DNA of 64,000 bases from a virus: IMG/VR virus record IMGVR_UViG_3300032093_000049, positions 1 through 64,000 of that record. One strand, written 5' to 3'. Positions 15,149 through 46,188 of this stretch are shown here, piece after piece. Positions within the stretch are counted from its first letter, which is position 1. Every line of letters starts with the position of its first letter. The notes under the pieces are model-generated. The model saw only the letters and a list, made by a program, of their open reading frames with translations, was not told where the DNA came from and searched no databases. A program made the translations under genes and the position numbers.

Positions 15149-18100
15149 TTAGTAGAACATGAATGGGAAAACATTGCTACCCATTACATAAACACCTCCT
15201 GCTGTGTCACCACCTTCTTTTCTATTATCATAAAGTGCCATCATAGCTTCAGCTGGGTACATGCTATTTGTAGCACTTCCTGTAGACTTATTATAATCTA
15301 TAATTGCAAGTTTAGTAGCTTGTTCCTCATCCTTAGTAAGGTTATAGTACTTCTGATAAAGATCTTCAAGTTCAGTTCCTCTCTCTGGTCTTGGAGTTTT
15401 ATAACCTGGTTTCTTTAGTAGTCTTCCACCAATTGATGGATCAACAGCATAATCAGGATATAGTTGATTAAGTGCATCTGTTTTCCATCTGTTAGTAATT
15501 GCACTCTTTAATTGATCTTCAAGATACTTTTTATCAGCAAGTTTAGTATTTTGTTTTTTAGCCAACATGTAATTCATTTGATCTACATACTGCTGAGCTG
15601 CTGCTGCTCTTGCTGCTGATTCTTTGTTTCTTATATCTACACCTGCATATTCATCTTGTCTAGCAAGTTGAACATTTGCATCATTGTATCTTGAAAGAAT
15701 GTCTGCTACATCTCTTGATTCCTCACCCATTATTTTAGATGCTACACTACCATAGCTTTGAGGCCCCATTGTTTTACTTAGGTAGTTAAGAACTTTATTG
15801 GTAGTTTCTTCACGGGCAGCAACTTCTCTAGCAGAATCTAAGAATGGTCCTCTTGGTTCTTCAAAGTCAACTCTTTGAGATGAAGGATACTGATCTTGTC
15901 TGCTATACATTCTGTTAAATGCACCTGCAGTAGCTATTGTATCTTGTAACCAATACGGAGCATACTGAGGTACCGGTACATTAATAGGCATTGGATTACC
16001 TTCAGGATCTGGAACTTCTTTATTTATAAGTTCACCTGGAGAGTATTCATACTTAACATCAGGACTAAAACCAAATGCATCAAAGTGTTCAAACCCTGCA
16101 AGTTGTTCATCACCTATAACTGGTCTTGCTCCTTCTTTACTAAGAACACCTTCAATACCACGTGTTACATCAGCATATCTTGTTTTATAAAAGTCAGGCT
16201 TGAGTAGTTCCTCATCATTTGCAGGTACATTAGGTATACCTAACATAGTAAGATAATCTCTTCTGAACTTTGCTTTAAGAACTGGATCATTATAAACTTG
16301 ATCTACAATTGCAAAAGCTTCATTATCATTATTTCCTGCTCCTCTTGCTTTTTCAAAAATAAATCTCTTCTCATAGTCTTCAGGAGTAAATCCAGCAACA
16401 AAAGAACCAGTTCCTTTATATACTCCTTTTTCTGTTCTTGAGTAACCTTCAGTTGCTGATTGTTTTTTTACAACATACTTATCAGTACCAAAATCTGCAT
16501 TTGAATTTAAAGCTCTACTAAGAATAATTCTATCTTGGAAACCAGGGTTAAACTTACCGGTTATTCTAATTTGAGAACAACTCTTATCTAAACAAAGTAT
16601 TGTCTTATCAATATAAATACCTTTTTCAATAATTGCATTTGCTCTTTCTATAATTTGTTTATTCTCAGGAGCCTGAGACATAAAGTCCTGAACTGTTTGT
16701 TTTTTAGTTCCTGTATCTACTGCAACTTTTCTAGGGTCAAACTTAACAGCAGTTACCTTTCTATAAGTGCCATCAGGTTGTAATACAAACTCTCCGGTTT
16801 TAAGATTCCATGCATCTTTTGAAGTTTTAATTACAGCACCTTCAGGTAATGATTCTTTAGTATATACTTTAGGTGAAGTTTTTACTTCTCCTTTATCTTG
16901 ATATTTATCTAACTCACCACCTTGTTTGTACATATAGTCACTTGGAGCAAACGGTAAATCATAACCACCCATAGTCATACCATACATAGCCATTGGAGCT
17001 TGCATCATTTCATCTTCTGCAGGCATTCCTTCTTCTGATGTCATAGCCATCATATCCATTTCTTCAGGAGTTGCTTCTGCTTGTGCTTCAGCAAGTTTAC
17101 TTTTAGGAAGAATGTCTTCATCTCTAAGACCCATTGATTCCATGTAAGGTCTAGCTACTTCTGGTATACCTTGAGGGAAACCTTTTTTAGATTCTTGTGC
17201 TAATGCAAGAGCACCTAGTTTAATATTAAACTGTTTAATCATTAACTCAGCAGTTTTCTTTTCTAACTTATCTGAGTTAGGATCCTGAAGTACCTTACGG
17301 TATGTATTAATGTCATACTGTTTTGCAAGATCAGCTGGAGTGTATCCTCCTTTTTTAGGAGTTTTGCCAAACATCTTAAGAATCTTAGGATCTGTAATCT
17401 TCATAGATCTAGTATCACTAAAGATAAATGTACCATCAGGAAGGTTTAGAGGTACACCACCTGAACTATGTCTAGGACCAGTAATCTTGTAGTGTTCTGG
17501 GAAACCATCACCATTGATATCTCCATATGCTGTTTCACCGCCTTCTGCTTCTAGATTAGCTTCTTCTCTTGGTACTCTAGAGATTGAATCTTTTACTTCT
17601 ACTTTCTTTTCTCCTGTGTACTGATCAATATCATTACCACCCATAGCAGTTGGAATGATTGCTAGAGAACCAAATCTTTGTGGATATGGTGTTCCTCCTT
17701 TTGCCATTATAGCTCCACCTTTCTGTCCACGGCCTATTACTCCTTCAAAACCTTCTCCTTGTGGTGCTCCAGGTTTCTGAGCAGTAAATGCAGTTTCACG
17801 GTTAGGAAAATATCTACCAGGTTCAGTATAGAAAGTATCTGCTGCAATGTTATCCATAGTTTGACCTTCATACATATTACGCATAGCTTGTCTTCTGCCT
17901 TTGTCAAACATTTCTGCTACTTGACCTACCTTATTTCCAATAACGTTTGTAGCTAATAGAGCTTGCTGAGGATCAAATTCTTTTAGTTCATAAGTACTTT
18001 GTTCCCAGTCTTTAAGAAACTGATCTGAGCTTGGTTCTTCAAGACCCCATGATTCCATTATTTCAGGACGGGTCTTATCCCAAACTTCCTGCATTGATTT

Positions 18101-19570
18101 TGGTTTAAGAAAAGGTATGTCTTGGTTTTGATTGTTTACCTGATTACCTTGATCTATACCTTGAAACTTTTGAAGTCCGTATTGAGCTTGTATAGGTTTT
18201 GTAAACATCTTAGACATGAACCCTTTAAAGCTTCTTGTTTTATCTTCATTGGGTTGAAACATTTTTTTGAAACCATACTTAGTTCTTTCACCTAGATTAG
18301 CAAAAGGTCCTTGTCTGTCTTTATCTTTTCTTCTATTTCTTTTTTCTTCAGTTAAATCAGATTCAGACTCAGCTTGATCATACAAAGGTCTATATGTATA
18401 TTTTTTAGCACCTGGTCCTAATCTTTCTTTAGTCATACTAAATCCTGTTGGCATTTCACCAGTAGGACCTGTAAATGGTAAAGTAGTATTTAGGTATTGA
18501 GGCATACCTGGGATATATTTTTTTCTTCCCTGATTAAAAGGAAGAAATGCATTAAAGATATTATCAGTAGAGTATGGTACAGGATTATAATAGTATCCTT
18601 GATAAGGATTACCAGTCATTTTACCGGCAGCCATAAAAGCTTTTTCTTGATCAGTAAGTTCTTGTTCAGGAGCTTCACTTGTAAATGATAAGTCAGTAAG
18701 TCTTAACTCTGGATTTGCAGCAGATTGTTCTTTCCAATATTCTGCCTCTTCCTGTGATAATGACTTAGAATTACCCCATCTATCTGTTACAGTTAAACCT
18801 GCTTGAGCTCTTGTTAAATCAGGTATAGAAGGATCATTACCTCCATATACAAACTTATACAAGTCACCACCTGTCATTCCACCAAACTGTTGTTCAAAAA
18901 AGCTTTCAGCTTGTTTTTCAATTTGAGACAGTACTACATTGTTTTTTATAGTAGAAAGAAAGTCTGTAGTTTTCTTTTGTCTACCATCCATTATATCTGT
19001 TGAGTCTGCTGTTTCTTGTGGCTGATCAATAGTATCACCTAATTGTTTTTTAGCAAGTTTGACTGCAGACCTAACAAATTTATTTTTAAGTTTATCTGTA
19101 GAACCACCTTCTTTTGCTGTTGGTTGTTCATATAGAAGCTCATTCATAAAGTTTTCATCTTCTTGAACAAACTCCTCTTCTTGAGCTAATTGCTGTCTTT
19201 TTCTTTCTTCAGCAATTAAATCTTCTTGAATAGAAAGTTGATCACTTAATGGTGCTTCACTTTGTGCAGTTTGTTCTTGTGCAGAGTTAGACTGTGCTTG
19301 CTGAAGATATTGAGCAGCAGCATTTATTATTCGTGTTGCTGCTTCTTCTCCATAAGATTTTGCTAATTGAGCGTATACTTGATTAGGGTCATTTCCTTGA
19401 CCTCCTAAGTCAACTGGTGCAATAAGACTGACAACTTTCATTACAAGTTGTTGTGGATCAACTTGTTGCTGTTGAGTTCCATATTGAGCTCTTGTAATAA
19501 AGTCTGAAAGTGGTGTAACTACTTTACCTCCATCTTCAGCTTTATAAATTCTAACTCTTCTTTTTTCCAT
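15149..19570 (-). CDS. Virion cargo protein (crAss-like cargo protein 1-type), 1473 aa, with many xxGG motifs
   Basis: Core ANLEAEGGETA...GPRHSSGGVPLNLPDGTFIFSD...TPADLAKQY resembles crAss-like cargo proteins as I recall them. Gln/Met-rich low-complexity linkers; more than 10 K/A-x-x-G(G) motifs. Confidence 0.65.
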   Translation of the reverse strand: MEKRRVRIYKAEDGGKVVTPLSDFITRAQYGTQQQQVDPQQLVMKVVSLIAPVDLGGQGNDPNQVYAQLAKSYGEEAATRIINAAAQYLQQAQSNSAQEQTAQSEAPLSDQLSIQEDLIAEERKRQQLAQEEEFVQEDENFMNELLYEQPTAKEGGSTDKLKNKFVRSAVKLAKKQLGDTIDQPQETADSTDIMDGRQKKTTDFLSTIKNNVVLSQIEKQAESFFEQQFGGMTGGDLYKFVYGGNDPSIPDLTRAQAGLTVTDRWGNSKSLSQEEAEYWKEQSAANPELRLTDLSFTSEAPEQELTDQEKAFMAAGKMTGNPYQGYYYNPVPYSTDNIFNAFLPFNQGRKKYIPGMPQYLNTTLPFTGPTGEMPTGFSMTKERLGPGAKKYTYRPLYDQAESESDLTEEKRNRRKDKDRQGPFANLGERTKYGFKKMFQPNEDKTRSFKGFMSKMFTKPIQAQYGLQKFQGIDQGNQVNNQNQDIPFLKPKSMQEVWDKTRPEIMESWGLEEPSSDQFLKDWEQSTYELKEFDPQQALLATNVIGNKVGQVAEMFDKGRRQAMRNMYEGQTMDNIAADTFYTEPGRYFPNRETAFTAQKPGAPQGEGFEGVIGRGQKGGAIMAKGGTPYPQRFGSLAIIPTAMGGNDIDQYTGEKKVEVKDSISRVPREEANLEAEGGETAYGDINGDGFPEHYKITGPRHSSGGVPLNLPDGTFIFSDTRSMKITDPKILKMFGKTPKKGGYTPADLAKQYDINTYRKVLQDPNSDKLEKKTAELMIKQFNIKLGALALAQESKKGFPQGIPEVARPYMESMGLRDEDILPKSKLAEAQAEATPEEMDMMAMTSEEGMPAEDEMMQAPMAMYGMTMGGYDLPFAPSDYMYKQGGELDKYQDKGEVKTSPKVYTKESLPEGAVIKTSKDAWNLKTGEFVLQPDGTYRKVTAVKFDPRKVAVDTGTKKQTVQDFMSQAPENKQIIERANAIIEKGIYIDKTILCLDKSCSQIRITGKFNPGFQDRIILSRALNSNADFGTDKYVVKKQSATEGYSRTEKGVYKGTGSFVAGFTPEDYEKRFIFEKARGAGNNDNEAFAIVDQVYNDPVLKAKFRRDYLTMLGIPNVPANDEELLKPDFYKTRYADVTRGIEGVLSKEGARPVIGDEQLAGFEHFDAFGFSPDVKYEYSPGELINKEVPDPEGNPMPINVPVPQYAPYWLQDTIATAGAFNRMYSRQDQYPSSQRVDFEEPRGPFLDSAREVAAREETTNKVLNYLSKTMGPQSYGSVASKIMGEESRDVADILSRYNDANVQLARQDEYAGVDIRNKESAARAAAAQQYVDQMNYMLAKKQNTKLADKKYLEDQLKSAITNRWKTDALNQLYPDYAVDPSIGGRLLKKPGYKTPRPERGTELEDLYQKYYNLTKDEEQATKLAIIDYNKSTGSATNSMYPAEAMMALYDNRKEGGDTAGGVYVMGSNVFPFMFY

Positions 19571-19627: not shown

Positions 19628-22600
19628 TTATTCATAGACTACTGTATAACCATCAGCTTTATACCTATCTATTTCTTCTGGGCTAAGATACATAGATATA
19701 CCTCCGTCTTTGTATTCTTTTTGAGATAAAGCATCTATTCCTACTAATGCAGGCACTGCATAAATACCTTTATTAAATATTTCTAAAAACTCTTCAGGCT
19801 TTATTATATCGAGTAATGTTTTTACTATTTTATCTTTAGGCTTTCTGTCCATAAAATATTGAGCAAGCTTATCTTCTGTTATATTTTCCCAATGATTTTT
19901 AAGTATATTCATTTCTACAAGTTTATCTCTAAAGCTTGTATTAAGATATGCATCTATTTCAACAGGATCACTTATGTATTCATATAGTGTTGGAGAGTTT
20001 TCCATTTTTGGAAATGCTGGTTGCATTAAGTCATCCGCTAACTGAGGGTTTATTTTACTTACTTCCCCCGGTGCCTCTAAAGCATTTTGCAATTTTTTTC
20101 CCCAAGCATTATTAAATGCAGCTAAATTATTTTGTCCTAATATTGTATGATGGCTCATTTCATGTTGAACTCTTCTTCTAATATCTTCAATAGGAGAATC
20201 ACCATATATAACTATTTTTCTATCATCAATTGTAGTAGGTTGACCTAAATTTCTTTTAGCAATACCTTCTGAAGTTAATGCTGAGTATCCTCCACCTCCT
20301 TCACCTGGATTATTTTCAACTCCTATCTTAAAAGGATATTTTTCTGCAACACCTTGACTTTGCTTTTGAGTAATTAAATCTTGTAGAGCTTGCATATAGT
20401 TTGTTCCATATTCTGCATCTAAAGCTTTAGCTCTTTGAATATTTTCTGGTGAAGTCTTTAGTCTAAAGTATTCTTCTGCTTGGTTAGCTATTTCTTTTTC
20501 AAAATCTGTATTTGGTGTAAAATAAGATTTTTCAGGTACTAAGAAACCTGCGTCTTCAAAATCTATTGTTCTATATATGTTAGGATCATTCATATCAAAG
20601 AATCCCACATTACCACGCAAAGATTTCATTCTATTTGAGTAGGGAACAACTATTTCAAAAGAGTTTTCATTTATTTTTGGATAAAATTCATCTCCAATAA
20701 CAAGATCATTATCTAGAAATCTATTGACTCTACCCTCTAATTTTGGAGGAATATCTCTATGAAACCATTTTAGTTGAGAATCTGCAAGTCTTTGTCTAGC
20801 ACTTAGTGGAATATTATCTGGTATAAAATTACTTGCATATAAAGGATTCTTACTATTTACAGCTAATTCGTAAACATTATCTCCGTATTCCTTAGCAAAA
20901 TCAAGAGGAGTTACATAAGTTCCTACTCCTTTATCTCCCATATCTGTTGTAGAACCAAAGTAATCTTTTTTAAATTCCTCAAATTTATTTGGGGAACCAT
21001 GTTTTACTGGTAAAACATTACCTTTCGAGTCTCTTAAAATATTAGGAAAAGCTTTTTTAAAGTAACTGCTTTGTTGTTGTATAAACTGTTCAGGAGTTCC
21101 TTGGAAAGGAGAACCATCAGGATTTTTCATCCAAGTACCATTAGCCTTTGTAGCTTCTTCTATTGCATTGTATTCATTAATAAGCTCTGGATATTTAGGA
21201 GTGTCAGGATTCCATTTACTCCAGTCTATTTCTGATTTAAAAGTGTTAATAGGATTAGTAGTAGTTTGTACTCTTGGAACATTCCTTAAAGGTAATTTAT
21301 TTGTAACATATCTACTTGCTCTAGCAAGATCATCTATAAGACCTGTTGCTTTTGCAAACGGAAGTACACTGACTGCATCTAATGTTTCGTTTAATCCTTC
21401 ACCATAGTTTGAACCGGTAAGTGGATTGACACCCATGTCAAAATCATCTTTAGTTGCATAGTTATATATGCCTTCTCCTAACCCAAAAGGCAAGGTAGCT
21501 AAATCACCAACAGTTTGTCCTACTCCTTTTGCAGTTTCTATAGGATTTTCAACAACTCTAACTAATGCAGGGGCTCCAGTTAATTCTAATGCGGTCTCAG
21601 TAACTGCCATGTTTTTAGCCTTTCTTGCATTAGCTTCATCTACTGCATCCTGAAACTGACCTTTGTAACCTTCTCTCATTACATAAGGATCAAATCTAGA
21701 CCAGTTTCTTTCTTCATACATTCTAGCAAAATCAGAAGTAGATATCTTATCTTCTTTTACTTTTCTTCTAGCTCTTTCAAATTCTTCAGCTTGTTTGCGA
21801 TAATCTTCTGCACCTTGAATAAAACGGGAGAGTTCTTTATTTGTAAAGTCTTTAGGTTTCACATCTTGATACCAAGCTTCTCTACCTCTAACTGTAGTCA
21901 TAAGAGCTCTTGCTTTGTCCATAAGCTGCTTATGTTTTTTTTCTGCAGCCGGAGTTGCATATGCAAATGTTTCCGGAGCATCATATGTTAGTTCTGGTTG
22001 TGTAATTATACCTTCTTGTGCTTTAGTTAATCCACCATTTTTTTTATTTCTCGTAGGATCTTCATAAACTTCTTCTCCTTTTTCATTAATCCATGCTACT
22101 CCAGGAGCATCCATTGGTTGCCAACCTTCTCCTGGAAAATATGCTGAGTAAGGAACTTGCTTAAAATCTTTTATCTTATACTCTCCAGGTTTATTAGGAT
22201 CAGGTTCCATAACAGTCTGCAGTCTTTTTGCAGTTCTGATAGGATCATAATTTATAGGTTTAGGTATTAAATTTCTTTGTATAAATTCTGGTGTTTCTGG
22301 TTGAGAAATAGTTTTAACAGGAAGTCTTCCTATTTCAGGTATTGTACTAGTAAACTCTGGTTCTTCACTTCCTTCAGGTAACTTTTTATAAATAAAGAAT
22401 TGCTGTGGGGCCATATATTCATTAACTCTCCACGGTTGTCGACCACTAGGATTTGCAGGAGCATATGTATTAATTTTAATAGTATTAATAGGTTTTATTT
22501 TACCAATAGCCTTTGGATCAATATAGTGGTTACTGAAACTAGTACTTTTATTAATAGCACGAAGAGCACCAATATTAGCCACTGGATTAAGATTTACAAG

Positions 22601-22885
22601 TTGAGCTTTACCAAGTTTGTCTGTTAACGGTTTTTTATACTGCCAGCTATCAGCACTTAAGTTTTTCATTTTTGAATATGTGTTATACAAAATTGAACTG
22701 TCTATATATGCATCAACTCGCCTATTATACTCATCAGGATCTGTAATTACATAAGGATTGTTATAGTTTTTTTGTACACACATCTTTAACTTAGAATTCC
22801 ATATCCATCCTTTTGGACATGCACCCGTGCCTGCAGCCCTTCCCTTTTGTGCTTTAGGTAAACCTGTTATCTTATACTTTGCCAT
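19628..22885 (-). CDS. Polyvalent cargo protein (1085 aa): ART-PolyVal-like ADP-ribosyltransferase domain plus zincin metallopeptidase domain
   Basis: KANGTWMKNPDG...PVKHGS...F..F...GVGTYVT...AKEYG..VY...NP...EIVV...KSLRGNVGFFD pattern; QHEMSHH...DPVEIDAY zincin motif. Confidence 0.65.
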   Translation of the reverse strand: MAKYKITGLPKAQKGRAAGTGACPKGWIWNSKLKMCVQKNYNNPYVITDPDEYNRRVDAYIDSSILYNTYSKMKNLSADSWQYKKPLTDKLGKAQLVNLNPVANIGALRAINKSTSFSNHYIDPKAIGKIKPINTIKINTYAPANPSGRQPWRVNEYMAPQQFFIYKKLPEGSEEPEFTSTIPEIGRLPVKTISQPETPEFIQRNLIPKPINYDPIRTAKRLQTVMEPDPNKPGEYKIKDFKQVPYSAYFPGEGWQPMDAPGVAWINEKGEEVYEDPTRNKKNGGLTKAQEGIITQPELTYDAPETFAYATPAAEKKHKQLMDKARALMTTVRGREAWYQDVKPKDFTNKELSRFIQGAEDYRKQAEEFERARRKVKEDKISTSDFARMYEERNWSRFDPYVMREGYKGQFQDAVDEANARKAKNMAVTETALELTGAPALVRVVENPIETAKGVGQTVGDLATLPFGLGEGIYNYATKDDFDMGVNPLTGSNYGEGLNETLDAVSVLPFAKATGLIDDLARASRYVTNKLPLRNVPRVQTTTNPINTFKSEIDWSKWNPDTPKYPELINEYNAIEEATKANGTWMKNPDGSPFQGTPEQFIQQQSSYFKKAFPNILRDSKGNVLPVKHGSPNKFEEFKKDYFGSTTDMGDKGVGTYVTPLDFAKEYGDNVYELAVNSKNPLYASNFIPDNIPLSARQRLADSQLKWFHRDIPPKLEGRVNRFLDNDLVIGDEFYPKINENSFEIVVPYSNRMKSLRGNVGFFDMNDPNIYRTIDFEDAGFLVPEKSYFTPNTDFEKEIANQAEEYFRLKTSPENIQRAKALDAEYGTNYMQALQDLITQKQSQGVAEKYPFKIGVENNPGEGGGGYSALTSEGIAKRNLGQPTTIDDRKIVIYGDSPIEDIRRRVQHEMSHHTILGQNNLAAFNNAWGKKLQNALEAPGEVSKINPQLADDLMQPAFPKMENSPTLYEYISDPVEIDAYLNTSFRDKLVEMNILKNHWENITEDKLAQYFMDRKPKDKIVKTLLDIIKPEEFLEIFNKGIYAVPALVGIDALSQKEYKDGGISMYLSPEEIDRYKADGYTVVYE

Positions 22886-25800
22886 TACTTAACCATTTCT
22901 AATGTATAACCTAATCTTTGCCATTCTCTTACTTGCTCATCAGTAAGTTCTATTTCATCTCCAATATTGTGAGTACCACCTTCTTTTTTGTTTGTTATAA
23001 ATTTTTTAAGTTGCTTTCTTCTAAATTCATCTTGGGGTGATAATTTACCTGTCTCTTTTTCTATTTTATTAAGAGTTTCTAATTCTAATTTATATTTACT
23101 TTTTTTATCAGATTTATAAGATTTACTAGATTCATATATTCCTAGACCTGTAGCCGCAGTTGCTACGGCTAATAGTATTCCAGGTCTTATAATTTGAATC
23201 TTATCTCTTCTACGATTAAGTTCATCAATAGTATCAGTCAGTGTAATTATTTTATCATTTAAGTCTTGTCTTTCTTTTAATAACCTTTCTACTTCAGCTG
23301 GATTTTTTTTAGATGCATATTGTATAGCTGTTTTTGCAATTTTTTCATCAAATAACTTCTGAAATTCTAATGCTTCATTTTTCTTTTTTACTAATTCATC
23401 TAAGCCACCATCAAGATAATGTTTAAGCTTATAATAATCTTTTTCTATTATACCTATGTTGGTTAAATTAGAAGTGTTAGCAAGATTGGTAAATCTTTCA
23501 GTTTGTGATTTTAAAACCGGAACATATTTATTAAACGAAAGAGTTAGAGCATCAAATTTTTTATCAAAATCATTTAATAATGTTGTGTATTTACTACCAG
23601 CAAAAAAACCTCTTTGTATAGCTTTAGCTCCTAATAAAGATGCAGCTTCTTTATAAAAATTATCAATATTGCTCACATCTTCTGGTATACTAGTCATACC
23701 AAAAGTTTCAGGATCTAATAAATCTCCTAAAGTTTTTGGTAATTTTTTCTCATCAATTTTAATATTATACTTTTCAGCAATATTTTTTAATTGAGTTACT
23801 TCAGCAGATTCTAACTGTCTATTACCAGATGTTTGTTTAATTATATCGTCTACATATTCTTTTGGCGTATTATACTTTTTATTTTTTATCAAATCATAAT
23901 ATATGCTACCAGTAATATCTTGATCCATATTTGCAAACTTAGGACTACCCAGAGTTACTGAATTTGTACCCATACCCATTGCTGAAGCCCCTTTACCTTT
24001 CCATTGTGTATACGCATTAAAAAGATCTTCAGGAGTTTTTATATACTCAGGAACTAATGATATTTCTCTATTATATATTGAATTATTAATATAAAAGTCA
24101 TTTAAAAATAACTGCATCCTTTTGGGATCAGAAGCAATTTTTGAAAGGTTATGTTTTGTTACACCTATATCTTTTAATATTTTGAGGTTTTCAGAGAAAT
24201 CAGATAATTGATCTTCTGAGAACTGATATCCTATTGAACCTTTTGAACCAACAATGCTTTTGGTAAATAATTCTTGTGCTTTCGCAACTTTATTATAATC
24301 AGTTGAGGTTTCTAATATATAATCAATTCTATTTATTTGTTTTGTCTTATTAAGATTTAATCCTGATCTAACTTGAGGTGTTGCTTCATATGCATCAAGA
24401 ATAGATTTTATTTCTGGATCATATGCATCCATTAACTCCTGTGGTGTTTTACTAATGCTAAGACTAGGAAGATTTTTTAAATTTATAGATTTAGTTATTC
24501 CTTGCTCTACTAAACGTTGTGTTTCTTTATAAAATTCATCAGGAAAGAATTGTCTAAATAACTCAGTAGCAAACTCTCCTTCTGCCATTCCTGTTTTAGG
24601 ATTTTCTTGAATTATATTTACATCAATTTTACCTTGAGAACCAAACTCATCTCCTAAATTTATTGTTGGTCCATATTTAGCTTGTTTACTTTGATCAATG
24701 CTAACATTCTTTTTTACTTTATTCCAATCACTAGCCGTCATAGCCACATCAATATCATTAGAAGCATGTGCTACACCAATATTATGAAATACTGAACTCC
24801 CAAATGGTTTAGAACCTGGAAGAACTTTTTGTACAAAAGCAATATTTTTATTTTGTGTATCAGCATATTTTGGATTAAAACTAAAATCAGGTATAAATTT
24901 TTCTGTTTTAACAGGGATTCCTTCTTTTAACTCTAGTGTAACTTCTTGACCTGGAACTTGAATATCAAATGGTATCTTTTCTTTTGTCTCAAAATCATAA
25001 ATATAGTTAATGTTTTGACCTGTTCCCGGATCTGTAACTACAGATTTCATTGTACCTATTTGCTGATATGGAGATAGTTCTTCGCTGTATAAAATTTTAT
25101 CATCAACTAATTTTGCATTATTTCTTAATCTACTTAGTTCATCTATTTTATCTTGTAGTTTAATTATTTGTTGTTTGGTAGCTATATCTTGAGTTCGATT
25201 ACTTTTTAATTGATGAAGTTTATACTTTGCTGTAATTATGTCTCTTTCTATTTCCTGATTTTGTTTCCATAACTCAAGACTTTTATCTTGAAGTTCAGCT
25301 CTTTCAAAAGCTAACTTCTCACTTTTTTTCCTATACTTTCTTAATATACCTGGTGTTAAAGATTCTCCAACATTTTTACCAAAATAATATGCTCCCTCTC
25401 CAATAGTTTGTGCTACTGGTTTTGCAGTATTATATACTTTTTTTACACCTTTAGTAATATCATCTATAGCACCCATACCAGGTATCATTTCAAGAGCTGT
25501 TTCTCCTAATGCCCAACCTGCATCTGACCAGTCACCTGTTTGTCTTGCTTTACCTATAAGGCCAGGAATTTCTGCTGCAGTTTTAATTGCTTGCAATGCA
25601 GCAGTAGCAGGATTAAAATAACTTGCAAAATCTAATCCTTTACCAACAGCATTTCTACTAAGTATTGGATCTTCTTCACCTAGTTTATCTAAAGCTCTTT
25701 CATAGTCTGTAATATTCCATGGAGCATTCATCATATCTCCTGTTGCTACAGAGTAATTAAAGTAGTCAATTGGATTTGTTATTATATCCCAAACTTTACC

Positions 25801-28377
25801 AGCATAATCTCCAAAAGTTGGATTTTCAGGAGCATTAAAATAAGTTGTGCTTTTGCTTGGTGTTTGAATAACTCCTGGATCATATTGTGTACCTACTCCA
25901 GAAAGATTCCATCTTCTATTAGCTATTTCATCTTCATCAGCTTTAGTCCATTCTAAACCACTTTGCTCATAAAGTTTCTTTGCTTCCTGAATATCTTTTT
26001 GAATTTGATCTTCTACTTTTTCATAGTTAGATTTACCAGTTACTTTAAAATCTTTGTCAAAAACTTTCTGTGCAGCTATCTGTTGAGCAGTAGGTTTTTT
26101 AGCAACTTGTTTTGCGGGTGCACTTTGAAAAGCTTGATTTCTATTTTCAACGAGGTCATAGTAGTCTTGATCAAAAAGTTGCTTAGCCCCTTTGTTTAAC
26201 TTAGCAGTTCTCTCTGCCACATCTCCTTTTGATAATGGTTGAAAGTTACCCGATCTGTTCCAGTCTACTTCCCACTTATTTCCAACCTTTCTATAAACAC
26301 CTTCACTTCCGGGATATGTATAGTACATACCTCCTTTTTGAAAGCTTCTTACACCTCCGTATTGCTGTTTGCCTTGAAGATTCTTTTGTCTATACTCTTC
26401 TCTTTCTCTTGCATATTTTTCTTTTAAGCTTTCTGTAGGTTGGCTTGTTTCTTCTCGTTCTGGCATTGGAAACTCAGGAGCCGGTTGCTCATTGTCTCCT
26501 CCACTTATACTCCATACACCATATCTGTATTTCTTTTCTGGCTTTTCAATATCAACTAAACTAGGTTCAACATTTTCTCTTATTCTTTTGGCAATTGGTT
26601 TAATAGATTTATTAACACTTTCATAGCCACCTAATGAAGGATTAGTTTTTCTATATACAAAATCTTTGTCATAGTATACGGACTCTCCATGACCAAATGA
26701 ACACTCAGGACAATTTGTTTTTAGATAGCTTTCATATCTTTGTTTTGGACCTGATTTGTAAAACTGATCATATGGTAAAAGCCCTTCTGGTATATATGCG
26801 GGATTTGCATAATTTTCTTGAACTTTCTTATTTAATTCATCATTTATGTTTTCAAGTTTAAACTTACCAGTATTAACTAATTCTTGAGCTACTGCTAGAT
26901 TTTGTTTTTCAAGCTCTTTTGCTTTTTCCCACTCTTTATATTTTTTATACTGATGTGTGTTTTCAGAAGGAACATAGTATGTATTTGTAGCTTCATCATA
27001 TCCTTCTGCTTTTGAGGGGTCAACAGCAAGCTTATAGTTAATATCTGGATAAATATTTATTGTTTGATAATCACCTGCACCATATACTAAGTCTTTTTGC
27101 TGTATTGGTTTAATATATATTGGCTGATTAATGTGAGTAAACTCCCTACTATATTCTGTAGGCCAGATATCATGTACTGAATGTAAATCTCTTATATCTG
27201 TACCTTCAGGATATCCATATTCTACTCTTTCATAATCTGAAACACATTTTTTTATTTTTAGATCATACGTATAACCTTCAGGACATCTTACAACTTTGCC
27301 AGTTTGAGCTTTAGGCAATTCTTCTACTACATACCCATCTTTTTTATACTGTTCTATTTCTTTAGGAGTAAGATCTAATTCTAGATACCCACCATCTTGA
27401 AATGTATAACCCTGCTTTTTGAGCTTTTGAATATGATTTACATATTTTAATGCATCTTTATATGAAACATTTGAAGGAATATAATCTCCAAAGTTTGTCA
27501 GACTTATATCACTATAGTCTTTTTGCATAAGCTTTTTAAGTTCTGTATTTTCAAGATCTAATAGCTTTTTTTGCATTTCTTTAAGAACTGGATCTGCAGG
27601 TGGAATATTTCTTTTATCATCTTCAATAAATAATGAACCAATAAAATCTTGATTGTTTACAGGCAAGCTAAAGAAGTCATCATCTGTTTCAATAGATTCG
27701 TAAAATTTATTTTCAAGGGGCTCATATAAAGTTTTATACCTCTCTTGTTGAGATTGTTTGTTTTCAACTGCTTGTTGAGCTTTAGTTCCTTTTGTCCATG
27801 TTTTATTATCAGGATTAAATCCGTACCATTCATCTCCTGGAGATCTCCCCCATTGGTCTTTAGTAGTAAACTGTTTTTTATCAGGATCAAACCCATACCA
27901 TGGTGAATCTGATTTTCTTCCCCAAGAGTCTGTTTCTCCACCTCCTTGATAGTACTTAGCATTAGGATCAAAGATTTTCTTTTTCTTTGATTTAGGCTTT
28001 TTGAATAATGGATTTTTGTCAAACAACTTATTAGTAGCAGAGAGACTTCTTGAATACTTTTTAGTATTAGTTTTTTGACCTCCTTTTTTTAACTCATACT
28101 CATCTACATATTCTGCTCCGTCAAAAGTTTGATTACTAGTATCTCCAGCAGGTATTATTCTTTCTTCACCAGTAGATGCAACAGCTAGTATATTATAAGG
28201 TGTTGGATTATATATAGTATTGCTTGGAATTCTATAATTGGTTCCTGCCGGTGGCTCTCCTTGTTTATATCCAGAAGTAGATACAAAAGGAATTAGGTCA
28301 TTATTAGCAACCTTTTTTTTTGATGGCTTGTTTAACTTTTTTGTTGCCTCTGATAAAACTTTCTTGTTGTAGCCCAT
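22885..28377 (-). CDS. Polyvalent cargo protein (1830 aa) with Pol-beta-type nucleotidyltransferase-like motif and C-terminal hydrophobic helix
   Basis: PFGSS...SNDIDVAM...KIDVNII at ~24610-24810; ILLAVATAATGLGIY near the C-terminus; repeated GG motifs. Confidence 0.55.
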   Translation of the reverse strand: MGYNKKVLSEATKKLNKPSKKKVANNDLIPFVSTSGYKQGEPPAGTNYRIPSNTIYNPTPYNILAVASTGEERIIPAGDTSNQTFDGAEYVDEYELKKGGQKTNTKKYSRSLSATNKLFDKNPLFKKPKSKKKKIFDPNAKYYQGGGETDSWGRKSDSPWYGFDPDKKQFTTKDQWGRSPGDEWYGFNPDNKTWTKGTKAQQAVENKQSQQERYKTLYEPLENKFYESIETDDDFFSLPVNNQDFIGSLFIEDDKRNIPPADPVLKEMQKKLLDLENTELKKLMQKDYSDISLTNFGDYIPSNVSYKDALKYVNHIQKLKKQGYTFQDGGYLELDLTPKEIEQYKKDGYVVEELPKAQTGKVVRCPEGYTYDLKIKKCVSDYERVEYGYPEGTDIRDLHSVHDIWPTEYSREFTHINQPIYIKPIQQKDLVYGAGDYQTINIYPDINYKLAVDPSKAEGYDEATNTYYVPSENTHQYKKYKEWEKAKELEKQNLAVAQELVNTGKFKLENINDELNKKVQENYANPAYIPEGLLPYDQFYKSGPKQRYESYLKTNCPECSFGHGESVYYDKDFVYRKTNPSLGGYESVNKSIKPIAKRIRENVEPSLVDIEKPEKKYRYGVWSISGGDNEQPAPEFPMPEREETSQPTESLKEKYAREREEYRQKNLQGKQQYGGVRSFQKGGMYYTYPGSEGVYRKVGNKWEVDWNRSGNFQPLSKGDVAERTAKLNKGAKQLFDQDYYDLVENRNQAFQSAPAKQVAKKPTAQQIAAQKVFDKDFKVTGKSNYEKVEDQIQKDIQEAKKLYEQSGLEWTKADEDEIANRRWNLSGVGTQYDPGVIQTPSKSTTYFNAPENPTFGDYAGKVWDIITNPIDYFNYSVATGDMMNAPWNITDYERALDKLGEEDPILSRNAVGKGLDFASYFNPATAALQAIKTAAEIPGLIGKARQTGDWSDAGWALGETALEMIPGMGAIDDITKGVKKVYNTAKPVAQTIGEGAYYFGKNVGESLTPGILRKYRKKSEKLAFERAELQDKSLELWKQNQEIERDIITAKYKLHQLKSNRTQDIATKQQIIKLQDKIDELSRLRNNAKLVDDKILYSEELSPYQQIGTMKSVVTDPGTGQNINYIYDFETKEKIPFDIQVPGQEVTLELKEGIPVKTEKFIPDFSFNPKYADTQNKNIAFVQKVLPGSKPFGSSVFHNIGVAHASNDIDVAMTASDWNKVKKNVSIDQSKQAKYGPTINLGDEFGSQGKIDVNIIQENPKTGMAEGEFATELFRQFFPDEFYKETQRLVEQGITKSINLKNLPSLSISKTPQELMDAYDPEIKSILDAYEATPQVRSGLNLNKTKQINRIDYILETSTDYNKVAKAQELFTKSIVGSKGSIGYQFSEDQLSDFSENLKILKDIGVTKHNLSKIASDPKRMQLFLNDFYINNSIYNREISLVPEYIKTPEDLFNAYTQWKGKGASAMGMGTNSVTLGSPKFANMDQDITGSIYYDLIKNKKYNTPKEYVDDIIKQTSGNRQLESAEVTQLKNIAEKYNIKIDEKKLPKTLGDLLDPETFGMTSIPEDVSNIDNFYKEAASLLGAKAIQRGFFAGSKYTTLLNDFDKKFDALTLSFNKYVPVLKSQTERFTNLANTSNLTNIGIIEKDYYKLKHYLDGGLDELVKKKNEALEFQKLFDEKIAKTAIQYASKKNPAEVERLLKERQDLNDKIITLTDTIDELNRRRDKIQIIRPGILLAVATAATGLGIYESSKSYKSDKKSKYKLELETLNKIEKETGKLSPQDEFRRKQLKKFITNKKEGGTHNIGDEIELTDEQVREWQRLGYTLEMVK

Positions 28378-31300
28378 TACCTAGGAGAATATGTGTTTTT
28401 TGTATTTAGTATTTTAAGTATCATGTTTGTATCATTAGATACAGCCTTAGATAAATATAAGAAATTTAAGTAATGTCTAAACCTTTTTCTTTGAAGTTCA
28501 GGTTTAGAATAGTTTAGATTATCCGGGTTAAGATCTCTAACATAACCATTAGCTTCCGTGATCCACATATTTTGTGATTCAGTTGGGCCGTCAAGTATTG
28601 TTGTACCTGGTATTACAGGTCCTGTTGGTGGATAGTCTGAACCAATAGGAAACTCTCCACGGTCTTTTGTTATATCCCAGAACTGGTTAAATCTATACTT
28701 CTGTTCTTCTTTAGAGAATAATATATCTATAGAATCAAGATTTACTTGTGGGTACTGAAGTGACAGTGCAACATTATTTTTAGGGAACAGGTTTAGATTA
28801 AGATAACCCGAGACCTGTTCTGTATTATATACTACTGCCCTATCAAAGTTATAATCTAGTACATGAAACTGATCAATACAGTTTCCTTTCTTCCTTCTGT
28901 ATGCCTCTAGTATATATTCTATACTTTTTAATGTAGTAACAGTTTGGCCTAAAGAAATTGGCATTTCAATTTCAAACGGATAATCAACTCCATAGTAATT
29001 ACAGAATCTATCACACTGATAATTATGTTTCCATATACCATTAAGCTTAGTACTTAAGAAAGTATTCTTACCTGGCATAAGTAAATCAGGATGCCAGTCA
29101 TGGAAAGAAATCCAAAACTTAGACTTAGGATCAAAGCTTAGTGTCCATGATGCAGATTCAAATGCTGGATTGTCTGGATCATTAAGTTTAAATCTTGCTA
29201 TTTTGTCTATGACAAAATCATTAGTACTAGGATCATAAACAACTCTTCCTTCAAAACTATCTTTAAGTCTGTAATCTTTTTTTGTAAAGTACAGTACAGA
29301 GTTTAAGTTATCATATATTGCCTGACATCCTATACCTGCAACAGGATTGTCTGTATGTGGATAATCAGGGAAGTCTTTAATTAACTGATAAGGAAGATAT
29401 AATGTAAACCACCACTTCATACCTAGTTGAGAGATCTCATCAAGAGACCCGGCAAATGACATTATTTTTCCTTGATTCTGAGAAACGTAGTATGTACCTG
29501 CAGGAGTAGATATAATTGACCTTGCGTTTTGACATGAACCATATTCATATGGTTTGTCAGCTATAATAAGATTCTGTGGTGCTTGTGCAAAAAGTCCCCC
29601 GTCACCTATTGTAATCTTTGTACCTGCATCTGTTTCTAATTGGTCAACTCCTTGGAATACAACAGGACTTGAGTTTTTAAATGTAATGAGTATACCTGTT
29701 TTAGCAAAGTTCTTAACTGCAGATATTTGATCTTTAAACTCTCTATAGTTACTTGCTAGATATAAAAACCAACCATCAAAAGAATTATTAATTGGTCTTC
29801 CTACAGGATCTGCAGTAGGGAAAGAATATAAAATTCTGTCTGGATAATATGTGTAGCACAAGCTAGATACTTTAGGATCATAGTATCTATTTTGTAAGTT
29901 ACCTCTTGAAAAATAATCTGTATAAAACTTTGATATACTTAATGACTGATCATATGCATAATAATCTCCCCGTGTAATTATACTAGGGTTCATATTAAAC
30001 ATGGCAGTTAGTTCACCAAACCCATATGGGTTGTAATATTTTTCACCATCAGTAAGACCTTGGTTTCTGAAGTTGACTAGTATTTCTGTTTCTACAAAAA
30101 AGTCTCTTACACCAGATACAGCCAAATAGAAAAATGATTCTTTTACACCAAAGAAACCTGGATAGTTACCGGGATCATCATTAGAATAATTATAGTTTTC
30201 ATTATCAAGATTAAAATAACTTTGAGGAAGTACACCTGTAGACGGTGTGGTTAAGTTACTTAAATCTGTGATTTCGGCTAGTGCCCCATTAAAATCATAC
30301 TTTTGACTGTTTAACCAGAACCTAGGTTGTGCAATATTTTGTCTTTGGAAATAATCATACTCTATACCAAATGGTTGTGCATATAACCATTCCCAGAAAA
30401 ACAGCATTGTATTTTTTTCTGTGTATCTACAAACATATGTGTCACCACCAAATATAACTGGAGTTGTACGTATTTTCTTTTGTACATACTGTTGTGGACA
30501 TGCAAGAGTACCACCTACTATTGAAGCAGGTAAATCAAAATAATTAAACTTTTGTTCACAAGGTGTAATAGGTATTTGTTTAATAGACTCAAGTTGTCCA
30601 TACTGACTTCTGATTCTTACTTTTATAGCAGCATAATGACTTGCAATATTTTTAGAAAACTCAATTTGCGGATCCTTAAAAGTTGGTCCTAAATCATTTT
30701 GATAAGGATTGCTTAGAGTAACTAATGAGCTATCTTGTTGTGCACCTGTTATGTATGCTGGACCTGTTGTTACTCCAGCACCATTTGTAGTTCTAATAAA
30801 AGCTGTCTCAGGTCTATTAATATTGTTTATGCTATAAGCTATAAAATCATTGGTAGTGTTGTTTTCAAAATAGCGTGGTACTCTTTGGATATTATTTCTT
30901 AAGTAAAATGAATCAGCAATTTTATATCTTTTACCATTTGCACTTGGGGCAAAAGCCATATCAGAATAAAATCCTTCAGAAATCATTTGTAATGCATATT
31001 GCCTGTATGGCATAAATGCATAGAATAATCTAAATATAAGATCTGAACCTTCCGCAAAATAATACAATACATATTGTAGTCCACCAATTGCTCTTAAGAA
31101 ACCAGGAGCATAAGCAAAGTCTGGTGCTTCAATAGAACCTGCAGGTAGTATTGGACCAAGACCTGTAACTGATGATGTACTGCTTATTGCTTGAATTAAT
31201 GAATCTTGTGCAGTTGCATATGATGTAGCACCATAACCACCTCCTAATGCTAAAACTGCATCTGCTAATGGAACAAGGTTACCATAGTAGTTTCCTAAGA

Positions 31301-43963: not shown

Positions 43964-44344
43964 TTATTTCTTTTTCTTTTTTACTACTCCACCTTTTTTT
44001 TGTTGTGGAATTTGATTCTGCATTTCATCCATATACATGCTTCCCATTCCAGAACCAGGTCCTGACACATTCACTGGTTTATTTCTAACAGTAGAAGGAA
44101 TAAATATTGGATTTCCTAAACTATCAGTTGTATACTGTGGATACATTGCGTTTAGTTGCTGTAGTTGTTTTATTCTTTCCTTTGCTGGATCATAGTAATT
44201 TACATCATTAACATTTCCTTGACCTAATTGAGCTTTAGGTAAAGACTTCTTAAATGCTTTCATAGCACCACCAGCTTTCATATAAGCTTTAGCTTTATTA
44301 TCATTGAAAGTCTTAAACGGATTTGATGTAGTTTTCTTTTTCAT
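43964..44344 (-). CDS. Small Lys-rich protein with GG motifs
   Basis: MKAGG, LPKAQLG, QKKGG, poly-Lys tail. Confidence 0.65.
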   Translation of the reverse strand: MKKKTTSNPFKTFNDNKAKAYMKAGGAMKAFKKSLPKAQLGQGNVNDVNYYDPAKERIKQLQQLNAMYPQYTTDSLGNPIFIPSTVRNKPVNVSGPGSGMGSMYMDEMQNQIPQQKKGGVVKKKKK

Positions 44345-44346
44345 GA

Positions 44347-44514
44347 TTATTTCTTTTTACGGGCAGCAGCCATTTTCTTAAAAGTCTTAGCAAGAGCTTT
44401 TGCTCTACCAGTACAGCCAGGTTTAGTAATAGGTGTACACTTACCTTCAGTGCCTCTACGTTTAATAGAGGCAGTAGCTTTCTGTATCCACTTCTTATCT
44501 TTTTTCTGAGCCAT
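44347..44514 (-). CDS. Small basic protein, 55 aa
   Basis: Below the ORF-track cutoff. MAQKKDKKWIQKATASIKRRGTEGKCTPITKPGCTGRAKALAKTFKKMAAARKKK; TAATG overlap upstream and 2-nt gap downstream. Confidence 0.75.
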   Translation of the reverse strand: MAQKKDKKWIQKATASIKRRGTEGKCTPITKPGCTGRAKALAKTFKKMAAARKKK

Positions 44515-44777
44515 TACTTTTTCTTTTTAGAGGTAGACTTCTTTTTAATAATACCTCTTCCCATTAGGATATCTTTCTTAGTTACTTTACCGTCTCCAGA
44601 AATATCAGGAAAAGATTTTGCTGAACCACCTTTCTTAAGAATTCTACCATCAGTTCTTGGGTTGTTACCATAACCAGGCATACCTACAATAGTTTTTGTA
44701 GCACCACCTGCTTTTTTTCTAGGGAGTGCTGTTGGTGTTTTTTTTACACCTCCTCCACATGCCATACATCTTGCCAT
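44514..44777 (-). CDS. Small basic protein with CxxC, GG motifs and a DxxxDG (EF-hand/dockerin-like) loop
   Basis: CMAC, KKAGG, LKKGG, FPDISGDGKVTKKDIL. Confidence 0.65.
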   Translation of the reverse strand: MARCMACGGGVKKTPTALPRKKAGGATKTIVGMPGYGNNPRTDGRILKKGGSAKSFPDISGDGKVTKKDILMGRGIIKKKSTSKKKK

Positions 44778-44795
44778 GACTTATATATAATTAAA

Positions 44796-45155
44796 TTAAC
44801 AATTCCACTTTCTTAAAGACTTATTAATCCTTGAGTTAGGATCATTAGCTGTCTTAGAGCTTGTTAGTTTTTTCTTCATACCTGACATTCTTTTACAAAA
44901 TGACTTGCGTCTCTTTGCTGCTTTGCTGTCAGGATCTAGTTTAGAAGGTTTAGTAGTTACAGCTGTCTTAAGTTTACTACCTGGATTTTCTCTTCTATAA
45001 GATGCTACTCCTTTAGCATTAAGACCACCAGACTCAGATTTACCCTCCTTACGCGTCCATGCAGGTGTAGAGCCACCTTTCTTCATCTTAGGTGTTTTAC
45101 CAGCTTTCTTCATTGAGATAGCTATTGCTGCTTGTTGTGCTCTACTCTTTGCCAT
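44796..45155 (-). CDS. Small basic phage protein (DUF6321-like)
   Basis: AWTRKEGKSESGGLNAKG...RRKSFCKRMSGMK...SRINKSLRKWNC, a family I recall from aquatic phages; preceded by MKKGG. Confidence 0.65.
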   Translation of the reverse strand: MAKSRAQQAAIAISMKKAGKTPKMKKGGSTPAWTRKEGKSESGGLNAKGVASYRRENPGSKLKTAVTTKPSKLDPDSKAAKRRKSFCKRMSGMKKKLTSSKTANDPNSRINKSLRKWNC

Positions 45156-45157
45156 GG

Positions 45158-45397
45158 TTACTTCATTTTGCCATTAGCCAAGTTGCTAAACATCTTAGCT
45201 TGTTCCATTGCCATCTTCTTTACATCAGACATGAGTTTTGCATCCTTCTGGATCTCAGCAGCTCTCTTTAATGTTGACATAGCAGATTCAACTTCCCACT
45301 TTCTCATATCAGCTTTGTTACCACCCATAATAGAAATACCTAATGAAGAAGATTTCTTAGCTGGAGTTTTCTTTACTGTTGTTTTTTTTATTGCCAT
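45158..45397 (-). CDS. Small basic hypothetical protein
   Basis: Lys-rich N-terminus; tightly packed with its neighbours. Confidence 0.6.
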   Translation of the reverse strand: MAIKKTTVKKTPAKKSSSLGISIMGGNKADMRKWEVESAMSTLKRAAEIQKDAKLMSDVKKMAMEQAKMFSNLANGKMK

Positions 45398-45400
45398 AAC

Positions 45401-45739
45401 TTATGCTTTACTCACTCTTCTACCCATACCTACTCTAGATTTCTCTGCTTTCTTAGCAGCTAGTTTAGAAGGTGTTAGTTCATATTTAGTTTTTGGTGTT
45501 TTACTTGAAACCTTTTTTGTGGGACGGCAGTATTCATTTTTACCACCGGCCCCACAAGGTTTTCCAGATTTAGTGTCTTGCCACTTTTCTTTTTGCCATC
45601 TTTTAAGCTCAGTACCTTCTTTGGTCTTTCTTACTTGACCTTTACCTTTACGGCACTTAGCAATAGCTTGAGAAGCCCTTGCTGAAGGGAACACCGCATA
45701 CCGGGCTTTTACACTATGATAACAAGAATCTTTTGGCAT
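45401..45739 (-). CDS. Small basic phage protein (DUF5872-like)
   Basis: KDSCYHSVKARYAVFPSARASQAIAKCRK...LKRWQKEKW...CG...YCRPTKKVSSKTP. Confidence 0.65.
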   Translation of the reverse strand: MPKDSCYHSVKARYAVFPSARASQAIAKCRKGKGQVRKTKEGTELKRWQKEKWQDTKSGKPCGAGGKNEYCRPTKKVSSKTPKTKYELTPSKLAAKKAEKSRVGMGRRVSKA

Positions 45740-46188
45740 TACTTCTTTTTCTTCATTGTCATACCATACTTGGCTTTAGGTACAGCAGTCTTAGGGGCAG
45801 TTGATATACCACCAGTGCGACCAGTAGCTTTAAGAAGAGCACTTACTTTTTTGTTAGAGTTAGTCATACCTCCTGTTTTGTATGTAGCTCCACCCTTCAT
45901 TTTATTTTGCCCAGGCTTAAATGGAGTAAAGTCATCTTCTTTTGCAGCTTTAGGATTCTTAGCATAAAATTCATTAGCCTTTATTTGATCTTTAGTAAGT
46001 CCTGGAGTAACAATTCTTTCTCTCTTCATTCCTGAAGATACGGGATCATCATATTTAATTTTAGTTACAGTACGACCTGTTTTTGTATTTGTTTTAGTTT
46101 TAATAACATTACCTTCTGGGTCAACTACTTTATTTTTGACTACCTTACCATTCTTAGCTTTACTAAGAGTTTTTTTCATATGTTTCAT
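45739..46188 (-). CDS. Lys-rich protein with GG motifs (start revised from 46254)
   Basis: ATG at 46188 (or 46179) avoids overlap with the upstream gene. KAKNG, MKGG, YKTGG and PKAKYG motifs; poly-Lys tail. Confidence 0.6.
   Translation of the reverse strand: MKHMKKTLSKAKNGKVVKNKVVDPEGNVIKTKTNTKTGRTVTKIKYDDPVSSGMKRERIVTPGLTKDQIKANEFYAKNPKAAKEDDFTPFKPGQNKMKGGATYKTGGMTNSNKKVSALLKATGRTGGISTAPKTAVPKAKYGMTMKKKK

Follow-up and report, generated by a model that had tools for sequence, protein, structure and literature searches.

A glycine-ending motif at the module joints of cargo-position and lysine-rich cassette proteins in a freshwater crAss-like phage

The first 64,000 nucleotides of the IMG/VR virus record IMGVR_UViG_3300032093_000049 (the whole stretch analysed, hereafter the window) form the start of a 100,016-bp contig of a crAss-like phage. 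We found that three giant proteins encoded in cargo position and the proteins of a lysine-rich cassette are strings of modules, with one short motif ending in Gly or Gly-Gly at each joint. We tentatively proposed, with less than even confidence, that this motif is a lineage-specific joint signal of virion-internal proteins and most likely the cut site of a dedicated candidate endopeptidase. An earlier sequence-only reading of this DNA had suggested that a portable tag is common to unrelated giant domains and tiny basic proteins, and the motif described below does occur in both.

A motif shared by giant and tiny proteins

The three motif-bearing giants follow the muzzle-position gene, as cargo proteins C1 and C2 do in PhiCrAss001, and are therefore called cargo-position proteins. 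These and the cassette comprise the following genes:

22885..28377, minus strand: first cargo-position protein, 1830 aa; motif at residues 96, 143, 326, 356, 679 and 1232
19628..22885, minus strand: second cargo-position protein, 1085 aa; basic leader running into L-P-K-A-Q-K-G (residues 9-15)
15149..19570, minus strand: third cargo-position protein, 1473 aa; basic N-terminal leader with GG-type and AQ-type sites (residues 14 and 27)
43964-46188, minus strand: cassette of seven small Lys-rich open reading frames (ORFs) after the capsid gene, listed in the next seven lines
43964..44344, minus strand: leader-family protein, 126 aa; 41-aa leader, variable payload, C-terminal K-K-G-G plus Lys tail
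44347..44514, minus strand: stand-alone Cys-containing mini-domain, 55 aa; no motif
44514..44777, minus strand: Lys/Gly-rich protein, 87 aa; three sites matching the position-specific scoring matrix (PSSM)
44796..45155, minus strand: 119-aa protein composed of a 27-aa leader, M-K-K-G-G and DUF6321 (PF19846, E 6e-20)
45158..45397, minus strand: basic protein, 79 aa; no motif
45401..45739, minus strand: stand-alone DUF5872 protein, 112 aa (PF19197, E 2e-12); no motif
45739..46188, minus strand: basic protein, 149 aa if it starts at Met23 of the longest ORF (171 aa), which overlaps the upstream gene

The motif is a single linear element of about 10 residues with two forms, Phi-[K/Q]-x-G-G-[S/T]-V-K (GG type, Phi being hydrophobic) and L-P-K-A-Q-x-G (AQ type), which were taken as one because they align in register. 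Since a motif should not be defined on the data on which it is tested, the profile was built from relatives, taking each GG dipeptide in the cassette proteins (315 distinct ones) of 47 related loci. In the GG-type profile, Lys at -4, Met or Tyr at -3 (Met 8.5-fold enriched) and K/Q at -2 preceded G-G, followed by S/T/A, V/T and K; the AQ-type profile read K-K-S-L-P-K-A-Q-x-G-(G)-S/T-V, with an 18-fold enrichment of Leu. As a control, isolated Gly residues were profiled in the same way and gave a flat result. Every peptide listed in the sequence-only reading is present in the gene to which it had been assigned, and the tag it wrote as K/A-x-x-G(G) corresponds to a real motif; that pattern is too loose, as a hydrophobic residue at -3 and K/Q at -2 before the first Gly are needed.

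We compared this genome with 2000 composition-matched shuffles per protein. In the proteins singled out by the sequence-only reading, the pattern [MLIFYV][KQR]xGG occurred 10 times against 1.48 expected, a count that no shuffle reached, and the pattern [KRQ]A[QK]xG 10 times against 0.91; in the remainder of the 100-kb genome the counts were 2 (4.0 expected) and 1 (1.46 expected), respectively. Bare GG dipeptides were mildly enriched (43 vs 27), which indicated that the signal resides in the context around the glycines. A PSSM trained solely on the relatives' cassette proteins gave 15 matches in this genome versus 1.7 in shuffles, and 14 of the 15 fell within one of the three giants or a small basic protein. 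As had been judged by eye, the motif is rare elsewhere: PSSM matches numbered 0 in this genome's portal, major capsid protein (MCP), scaffold-like, ring, muzzle-position, fibre, 1105-, 2599- and 1319+-aa proteins. We further compared six related genomes, with the gene classes set by synteny alone. Per 1000 aa, the regular expression density was 7.70 in the cassette, 3.18 in the cargo-position proteins and 0.15 in all other proteins; the corresponding PSSM densities were 9.76, 1.36 and 0.08. A frequency equal to the composition-matched background had been set beforehand as the refuting outcome, and the shuffles, the PSSM and the six-genome test all showed enrichment.

To judge from its encoding, the motif is selected as a peptide and not as DNA. 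The 248 motif sites have 120 distinct 12-nt encodings, and their codon usage equals the background. In the 1830- and 1473-aa proteins, orthologous sites keep the pattern while the neighbouring residues drift. In addition, cargo-position proteins of two relatives (G1 and G5; this genome is G0) that have no detectable homology to those of this genome likewise have the motif.

Several trivial origins of the motif were ruled out. Chance or composition was dismissed by the shuffles, the flat single-Gly control and the six-genome synteny test, and a Shine-Dalgarno-like nucleotide signal (AAGGAGG) by the background codon usage and by the presence of this string in just 19% of sites. Met at -3 is not a relic of start codons, as 0 of the 315 proteins begin with the motif and Met still accounts for 27% at sites at least 30 residues in. 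Nor is the motif a general feature of Crassvirales, since PhiCrAss001 is without it and phi17:2, csAssE-Sib and Lbo-JY46 are without the cassette. Carriage of the motif along with DUF6321 in other phage groups was also ruled out.

Placement of the motif at module joints

Identity among the cassette proteins is 25-71%, compared with 91-96% for the MCP, and this hypervariable cassette gains, loses, fuses and splits modules. Of 303 boundaries of these fusions and fissions, 109 lie near the motif (null mean 68, null maximum 92); of 46 boundaries of homology blocks in the cargo-position proteins, 10 do so (3.2 expected, P = 0.0004). The clearest cases were the Cys mini-domain and DUF6321: x-K-x-G-G-S-T stands directly upstream in each of their 22 distinct fused forms (strict pattern in 18, a relaxed variant in 4), and all 12 distinct stand-alone forms begin at the joint point and have no motif. 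Similarly, a module of about 70 aa common to the 1473-aa protein (residues 156-230) and an unrelated G5 protein is bracketed by motif sites in both. No compositional difference was seen between the motif flanks and the remainder of these very hydrophilic proteins. Thus, of the earlier proposal that the motif lies in disordered linkers at termini and module boundaries, the boundary placement is supported and the disorder is not separately supported.

In the cargo-position proteins of G0, G1 and G5, the three genomes referred to below, six of nine N-termini have a short, basic, strand-like leader running into the motif. By eye, a GG site followed by an acidic element of 25-30 aa ends six of the nine C-termini, and five of those six were matched at the C-terminus by pattern. 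In each genome, the first cargo protein also has the acidic element at an internal position; in the 1830-aa protein it is fused to L-P-K-A-Q-x-G within an internal junction element (residues 326-362), and the same acidic element stands at the C-terminus. Neither the leader nor the C-terminal element was found in other proteins of the three genomes. Because leaders, tails and elements are set off alike at termini and internally, gene-to-gene and internal junctions are equivalent.

The individual giants follow this arrangement. Sites 96 and 143 of the 1830-aa protein are kept in its orthologues G5_725 and G1_807. In the 1085-aa protein, an AQ-type site at residue 288 and a GG-type site at residue 1058 are followed, after the latter, by a 23-aa acidic C-terminal element; residues 619-763 resemble ART-PolyVal (PF18760, E 1e-6), at 30.0 bits, below the cut-off of 31.2 bits, and an HExxH lies at residue 908, with no Pfam peptidase model matched. 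G1 and G5 lack a homologue of this protein, and a pattern scan found no orthologues. The 1473-aa protein has a conserved block from about residue 632, after GG sites 618 and 625. Besides the ART-PolyVal-like region, Pfam recognized no domain in the three cargo-position proteins. As a separate observation, the blocks at about residues 632-942 (16745-17677, minus strand) and 1176-1472 (15152-16045, minus strand) are the only parts of the 1473-aa protein conserved in the 744-1010-aa proteins of relatives; neither matches Pfam, and the extreme C-terminus (...G-S-N-V-F-P-F...) is kept in two of three genomes.

The 126-aa cassette protein belongs to a leader family in which the step at the motif is sharp. 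Its leader has a GG-type site at residues 22-26 and ends at L-P-K-A-Q-L-G (residue 41). In 89 of 93 database members the leader Gly is at position 41 or 42; identity is 69% over the 30 aa before this Gly and 9% over the 30 aa after it, and L, A, Q and G of the AQ-type motif are invariant. The payloads fall into at least 30 unrelated groups, for which no Pfam family was matched, and 35 of 120 leader-family proteins end in Phi-K-K-G-G-x-V-K-R-K-K. An exhaustive profile search found the leader in 171 clusters at 50% identity, nearly always at residues 1-44; of 11 internal leaders, six have a GG site directly upstream. In an AlphaFold model of the 126-aa protein (modest confidence), the leader is one helix and the AQ-type motif is exposed in the coil after it.

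Other cassette members are organized likewise. The 149-aa protein has an AQ-type site near its N-terminus, a GG-type site at residue 125 (long ORF) and another AQ-type site 7 residues from the C-terminus, and the similarity of the 119-aa protein to DUF6321 of other phage groups begins only past the motif. Lys makes up 17-21% of the cassette proteins. No Pfam KGG-repeat/YciG-type family was reported for six cassette proteins or 38 leader-family members, and one database source names a leader-family member YciG. DUF6321 and DUF5872, stand-alone in the window, are elsewhere parts of 450-930-aa PHROG families, and DUF6321 is common in cyanomyoviruses and pelagiphages (523 GenBank phage records). 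Among related loci (L010, L020, L011 and L024), some cassettes hold long histone-H1-like/AlgP-like Lys/Ala/Pro repeat proteins, and proteins with K-V-A-A-N-type heptad repeats also occur; these proteins strengthen the impression that part of the cassette content condenses DNA.

Candidate processing and alternative explanations

The stand-alone mini-domains lack the motif, and we therefore read it as a cut or joint signal; the leaders and tails that it sets off are likelier address candidates than the motif itself. The earlier suggestion had been that the motif is either an address label or a cut site: the T4-like logic of a conserved tag on variable cargo fits well, and the 12 stand-alone copies without the motif make an obligatory address unlikely. 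We proposed that leaders and tails would bind the assembling procapsid (scaffold, portal or shell interior) and that a protease would then cleave at, or directly past, the Gly. Cleavage would free mature modules that match those with genes of their own; these would be Lys-rich core proteins that neutralise DNA, and effectors for ejection, for instance the ART-like domain. The logic of the T4 capsid-targeting sequence (CTS) would thereby be extended to internal joints. If internal joints were cut, gene fusion or fission at a joint would be neutral. The protease might be the DUF2201_N-vWA metallopeptidase described below, a packaged zincin or a host enzyme.

A bolder version, which we regard as doubtful, is that this lineage matures its internal proteins in the manner of polyproteins. 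Here a kind of protease new to capsid maturation, possibly DUF2201_N-vWA with its AAA partner, would cut Gly-ending joints to yield adenovirus-like Lys-rich core peptides and freed effectors. Arbitrary payloads would be loaded into crAss-type capsids by means of a general code made up of the 41-aa leader and the tails, basic or acidic, and the orphan payloads, hundreds in number, would form a stock of anti-defence proteins for injection.

A number of findings weigh against the cut-site proposal. Cutting at the motif is inferred from the sequences, and the virion location of the proteins from gene position and from PhiCrAss001. Unlike in classical prohead maturation, the MCP, scaffold-like protein and portal are without the motif, and some motif sites are only 5-9 residues apart, so that cutting would yield tiny peptides. 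In agreement with the earlier remark that no prohead protease gene is evident, searches of the three genomes gave no match at E <= 1 to S77 or S78 or to the clan CE families C5 and C48, and no detectable C39 domain; in the morphogenesis module, Pfam found no peptidase. A hidden protease in the 413-aa ORF, which occupies the classical protease position, was rejected because the protein is all-helical and scaffold-like. A further candidate, the DUF2201_N metallopeptidase, is encoded among genes of replication type; one phylogenetic contrast links it to the motif, which makes it only a lead.

That contrast is as follows. The DUF2201_N domain, fused to a vWA-like domain and adjoining an AAA gene, is conserved in G0, G1 and G5 and absent from four motif-less crass-like phages; we consider it a candidate motif protease, as a weak alternative. 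In G5 this gene (locus L116, G005:C1:4000-12500, ~1397-3696) is split exactly inside the HExxH codons by an intron, about 1.1 kb long, in which lies a homing-endonuclease-like ORF of 284 aa; exon 1 ends H-E-L. A short ClpS-like gene lies outside the window (G000:C1:81191-81379, plus strand; PF02617, E 9e-12), with counterparts in L112 and L114; it occurs in all three motif-bearing genomes tested and is absent from PhiCrAss001 and phi17:2. ClpS recognises N-terminal Leu, Phe, Tyr or Trp. Given this specificity and the Met, Tyr, Phe or Leu at -3 of the motif, a link to processed N-termini is conceivable; this too is a single phylogenetic contrast and thus a lead. Two further ideas were discarded: the 337-aa ORF as a motif-specific factor, as it is a weak homologue of PhiCrAss001 gp33, and self-cleavage via an N-to-O acyl shift at G|S, as +2 is often Ala, Met or Val.

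An unlikely competitor is that the motif is never cut and serves as a docking element for some part of the procapsid (scaffold, shell interior or portal), staying in the mature protein, with its copies giving avidity. Many proteins do have several copies, including the closely spaced ones; the copies are basic and helix-flanked, as in the 126-aa model, where an exposed L-P-K-A-Q-x-G comes after the one leader helix; and the failure to detect a protease fits a motif that is not cut. The scaffolding protein of phage P22 binds the coat protein via a basic C-terminal helix-turn-helix, a precedent that we counted for this explanation. It does not sit well with the stand-alone DUF6321, Cys mini-domain and DUF5872 proteins, which occur without the motif in the same cassette when fused copies always have it, and the conservation step exactly at the leader Gly fits a cut site better than a binding patch. 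It is less likely still that the motif has no dedicated reader and is a hinge or helix-capping turn, perhaps a DNA-contact element, that was reused and spread by module recombination. Gly-Gly is naturally hinge-like, the cassette proteins are very rich in Lys, and Lys residues of T4 internal proteins contact DNA (PMC3012670); moreover, two strand-like segments enclose the AQ-type motif at some cargo joints, and a helix-like S/T-P-E-E-I segment precedes some GG sites. A hinge has no need, however, for invariant L, A, Q and G or for Met/Tyr/Phe at -3 with K/Q at -2, and isolated Gly residues gave a flat profile. The motif is also kept in the giants despite flanks that are not Lys-rich, and is absent from all other proteins, flexible Gly-rich fibre proteins included.

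Processing might instead occur after ejection, a packaged zincin in an RNA polymerase (RNAP)-type giant or in the cargo cutting the joints inside the host and releasing effectors; we judged this improbable. The largest giant has an HExxH domain conserved in G0, G1 and G5, the 1085-aa protein and G1_807 each have an HExxH as well, and autoproteolytic release by metallopeptidase (MPTase) domains has been predicted for polyvalent proteins (PMC5512222). However, gp47 of PhiCrAss001 has the same kind of HExxH in a phage without the motif, the three cargo proteins of G5 are without HExxH, and small basic proteins are hard to account for as host-directed polyproteins. For related reasons the two zincins put forward by the sequence-only reading as motif proteases were not upheld, as they do not track the motif: neither G1 nor G5 has a counterpart to the HExxH of the 1085-aa protein, and the one in the largest giant is shared with gp47. 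Taken together, we continue to prefer, tentatively, the proposal of a dedicated endopeptidase acting on virion-internal proteins at the motif.

Lineage context and comparison with known systems

Every long ORF of the window is on the minus strand, and the gene order is crAss-like by Pfam and PHROG matches and by synteny with PhiCrAss001. Outside the cassette and the cargo-position genes, the layout is as follows:

53028-55232, minus strand: TerL (PHROG match)
50293-53022, minus strand: portal (PHROG match)
48943..50184, minus strand: scaffold-like 413-aa protein between portal and MCP; no protease fold, no motif
47295-48911, minus strand: MCP (PHROG match)
46199-47212, minus strand: 337-aa ORF, the gp33 homologue mentioned above
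43262-43960, minus strand: virion structural protein
42630-43256, minus strand: ferritin-like protein (PF00210, E 2e-26)
between the ferritin-like gene and Ring-2, minus strand: fibre-like genes
34711-35385, minus strand: Ring-2 (CrAss_Ring_2, E 3e-24)
33668-34711, minus strand: Ring-1 (CrAss_Ring_1, E 4e-11)
28377..33665, minus strand: muzzle-position protein, 1762 aa, with the rings just upstream and at the start of the cargo block; no motif
beyond the 1473-aa protein in gene order, minus strand: 1105-, 2599- and >1319-aa giants; no PSSM match
1..3957, minus strand: largest giant, N-terminal 1319 aa, cut by the contig end; HExxH at residue 974, no motif

The features of a Crassvirales virion module are thus present (the ring-protein families, and portal, MCP and TerL in crAss order). 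The closest GenBank phages are at most 33% identical in the portal and at most 29% in the MCP. By MCP patterns, about 600 IMG/VR stretches match, the best 80 being 91-96% identical; for the 413-aa protein, the matching clusters (90% identity) exceed 6,600. The phage, a podovirus, thus belongs to a very abundant uncultured clade of lake (freshwater) crAss-like phages. The ferritin-like protein has an N-terminal extension, lies inside the virion morphogenesis operon and has no homologue in the relatives G1 and G5. Upstream of TerL, a conserved 138-aa protein (57158-57574, minus strand) gave a weak match to HU/IHF (PF00216, E 0.009, below the cut-off); the PhiCrAss001 virion module likewise holds an HU/IHF-like gene.

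The lineage bears on how crassviruses choose and load their several megadaltons of cargo protein, in that its leaders, joint motif and tails form a readable grammar. In the searchable literature we found no description of the motif or of processed crassvirus core proteins, and nothing relevant on DUF6321, on DUF2201 in phages or on a crassvirus cargo motif. The more than 170 fast-evolving orphan payload families are candidates for proteins that enter the host with the DNA and, by analogy with T4 internal proteins, would be expected to include anti-defence factors. If cutting without a known prohead protease holds true, there is a new maturation protease to find in one of the most abundant groups of lake phages.

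In PhiCrAss001, the genes for cargo proteins C1 (gp45) and C2 (gp46) lie between the muzzle gene, which they directly follow, and the RNAP-type giants; the structure paper gives the location of the cargo and mentions no loading signal, protease or cleavage (PMC10172136). The cargo gene position and the ring-protein families are alike in our phage; the differences are that PhiCrAss001 is without the motif and the Lys-rich cassette and has two cargo proteins instead of three, with no detectable homology of ours to gp45/gp46. Polyvalent proteins are giant, multi-domain, module-shuffling proteins delivered with the DNA, for which proteolytic domain release is predicted (Iyer et al. 2017, PMC5512222). 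The giants described here, with a candidate ART-PolyVal-like region and putative zincin-like HExxH domains, may resemble them; the ART match is just below the Pfam cut-off, the HExxH motifs matched no Pfam peptidase model, and Iyer et al. describe no joint motif (PMC5512222). The joint grammar in this lineage, unlike theirs, reaches tiny separately encoded proteins.

Double-glycine leaders are conserved N-terminal leaders cut by C39 peptidases, with variable cargo after them. In the leader family, too, the conserved part closes with Gly-Gly or Gly, conservation falls abruptly at the putative cut, and variable cargo comes next; in contrast, the leader sequence is unrelated, no C39 domain was detected in the three genomes, and the proteins are cytoplasmic phage proteins, not exported peptides. 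Adenain processes adenovirus core and capsid precursors at (M/L/I)-X-G-G|X or (M/L/I)-X-G-X|G, and African swine fever virus (ASFV) polyproteins are cleaved after G-G. A hydrophobic residue with Gly-Gly, small, very basic substrates of the DNA-condensing type and polyprotein-like precursors are common to these systems and ours. They differ in that the hydrophobic residue is here three positions before the first Gly (Phi-[K/Q]-x-G-G) and not two, as in adenain, that there is an L-P-K-A-Q-x-G variant, and that neither C5 nor C48 of clan CE was detectable.

The closest analogue is the CTS and prohead protease (gp21) system of T4. There, diverse basic internal proteins (IPI-III) and Alt share the CTS, which gp21 removes; the internal-protein payloads are hypervariable, and Alt, an ADP-ribosyltransferase (ART), is cut at both ends (PMC9026906, PMC3012670). 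The signal described here ends in Gly or Gly-Gly instead of L/I-x-E, its leader is 41 aa long compared with 10 in T4, and it is also found at internal joints of multi-module proteins; moreover, our phage is a crAss-like podovirus with no S77/S78 gene detected, and its MCP and scaffold-like protein have no site. The likeness lies in the arrangement: in both, a short, conserved, portable terminal peptide is carried by unrelated, fast-evolving, basic, Lys-rich proteins, which are internal in T4 and putatively so in our phage; small basic proteins are encoded in a hypervariable locus, which in our phage is the cassette; and the 1085-aa ART-like protein, like Alt, has a motif site near each end.

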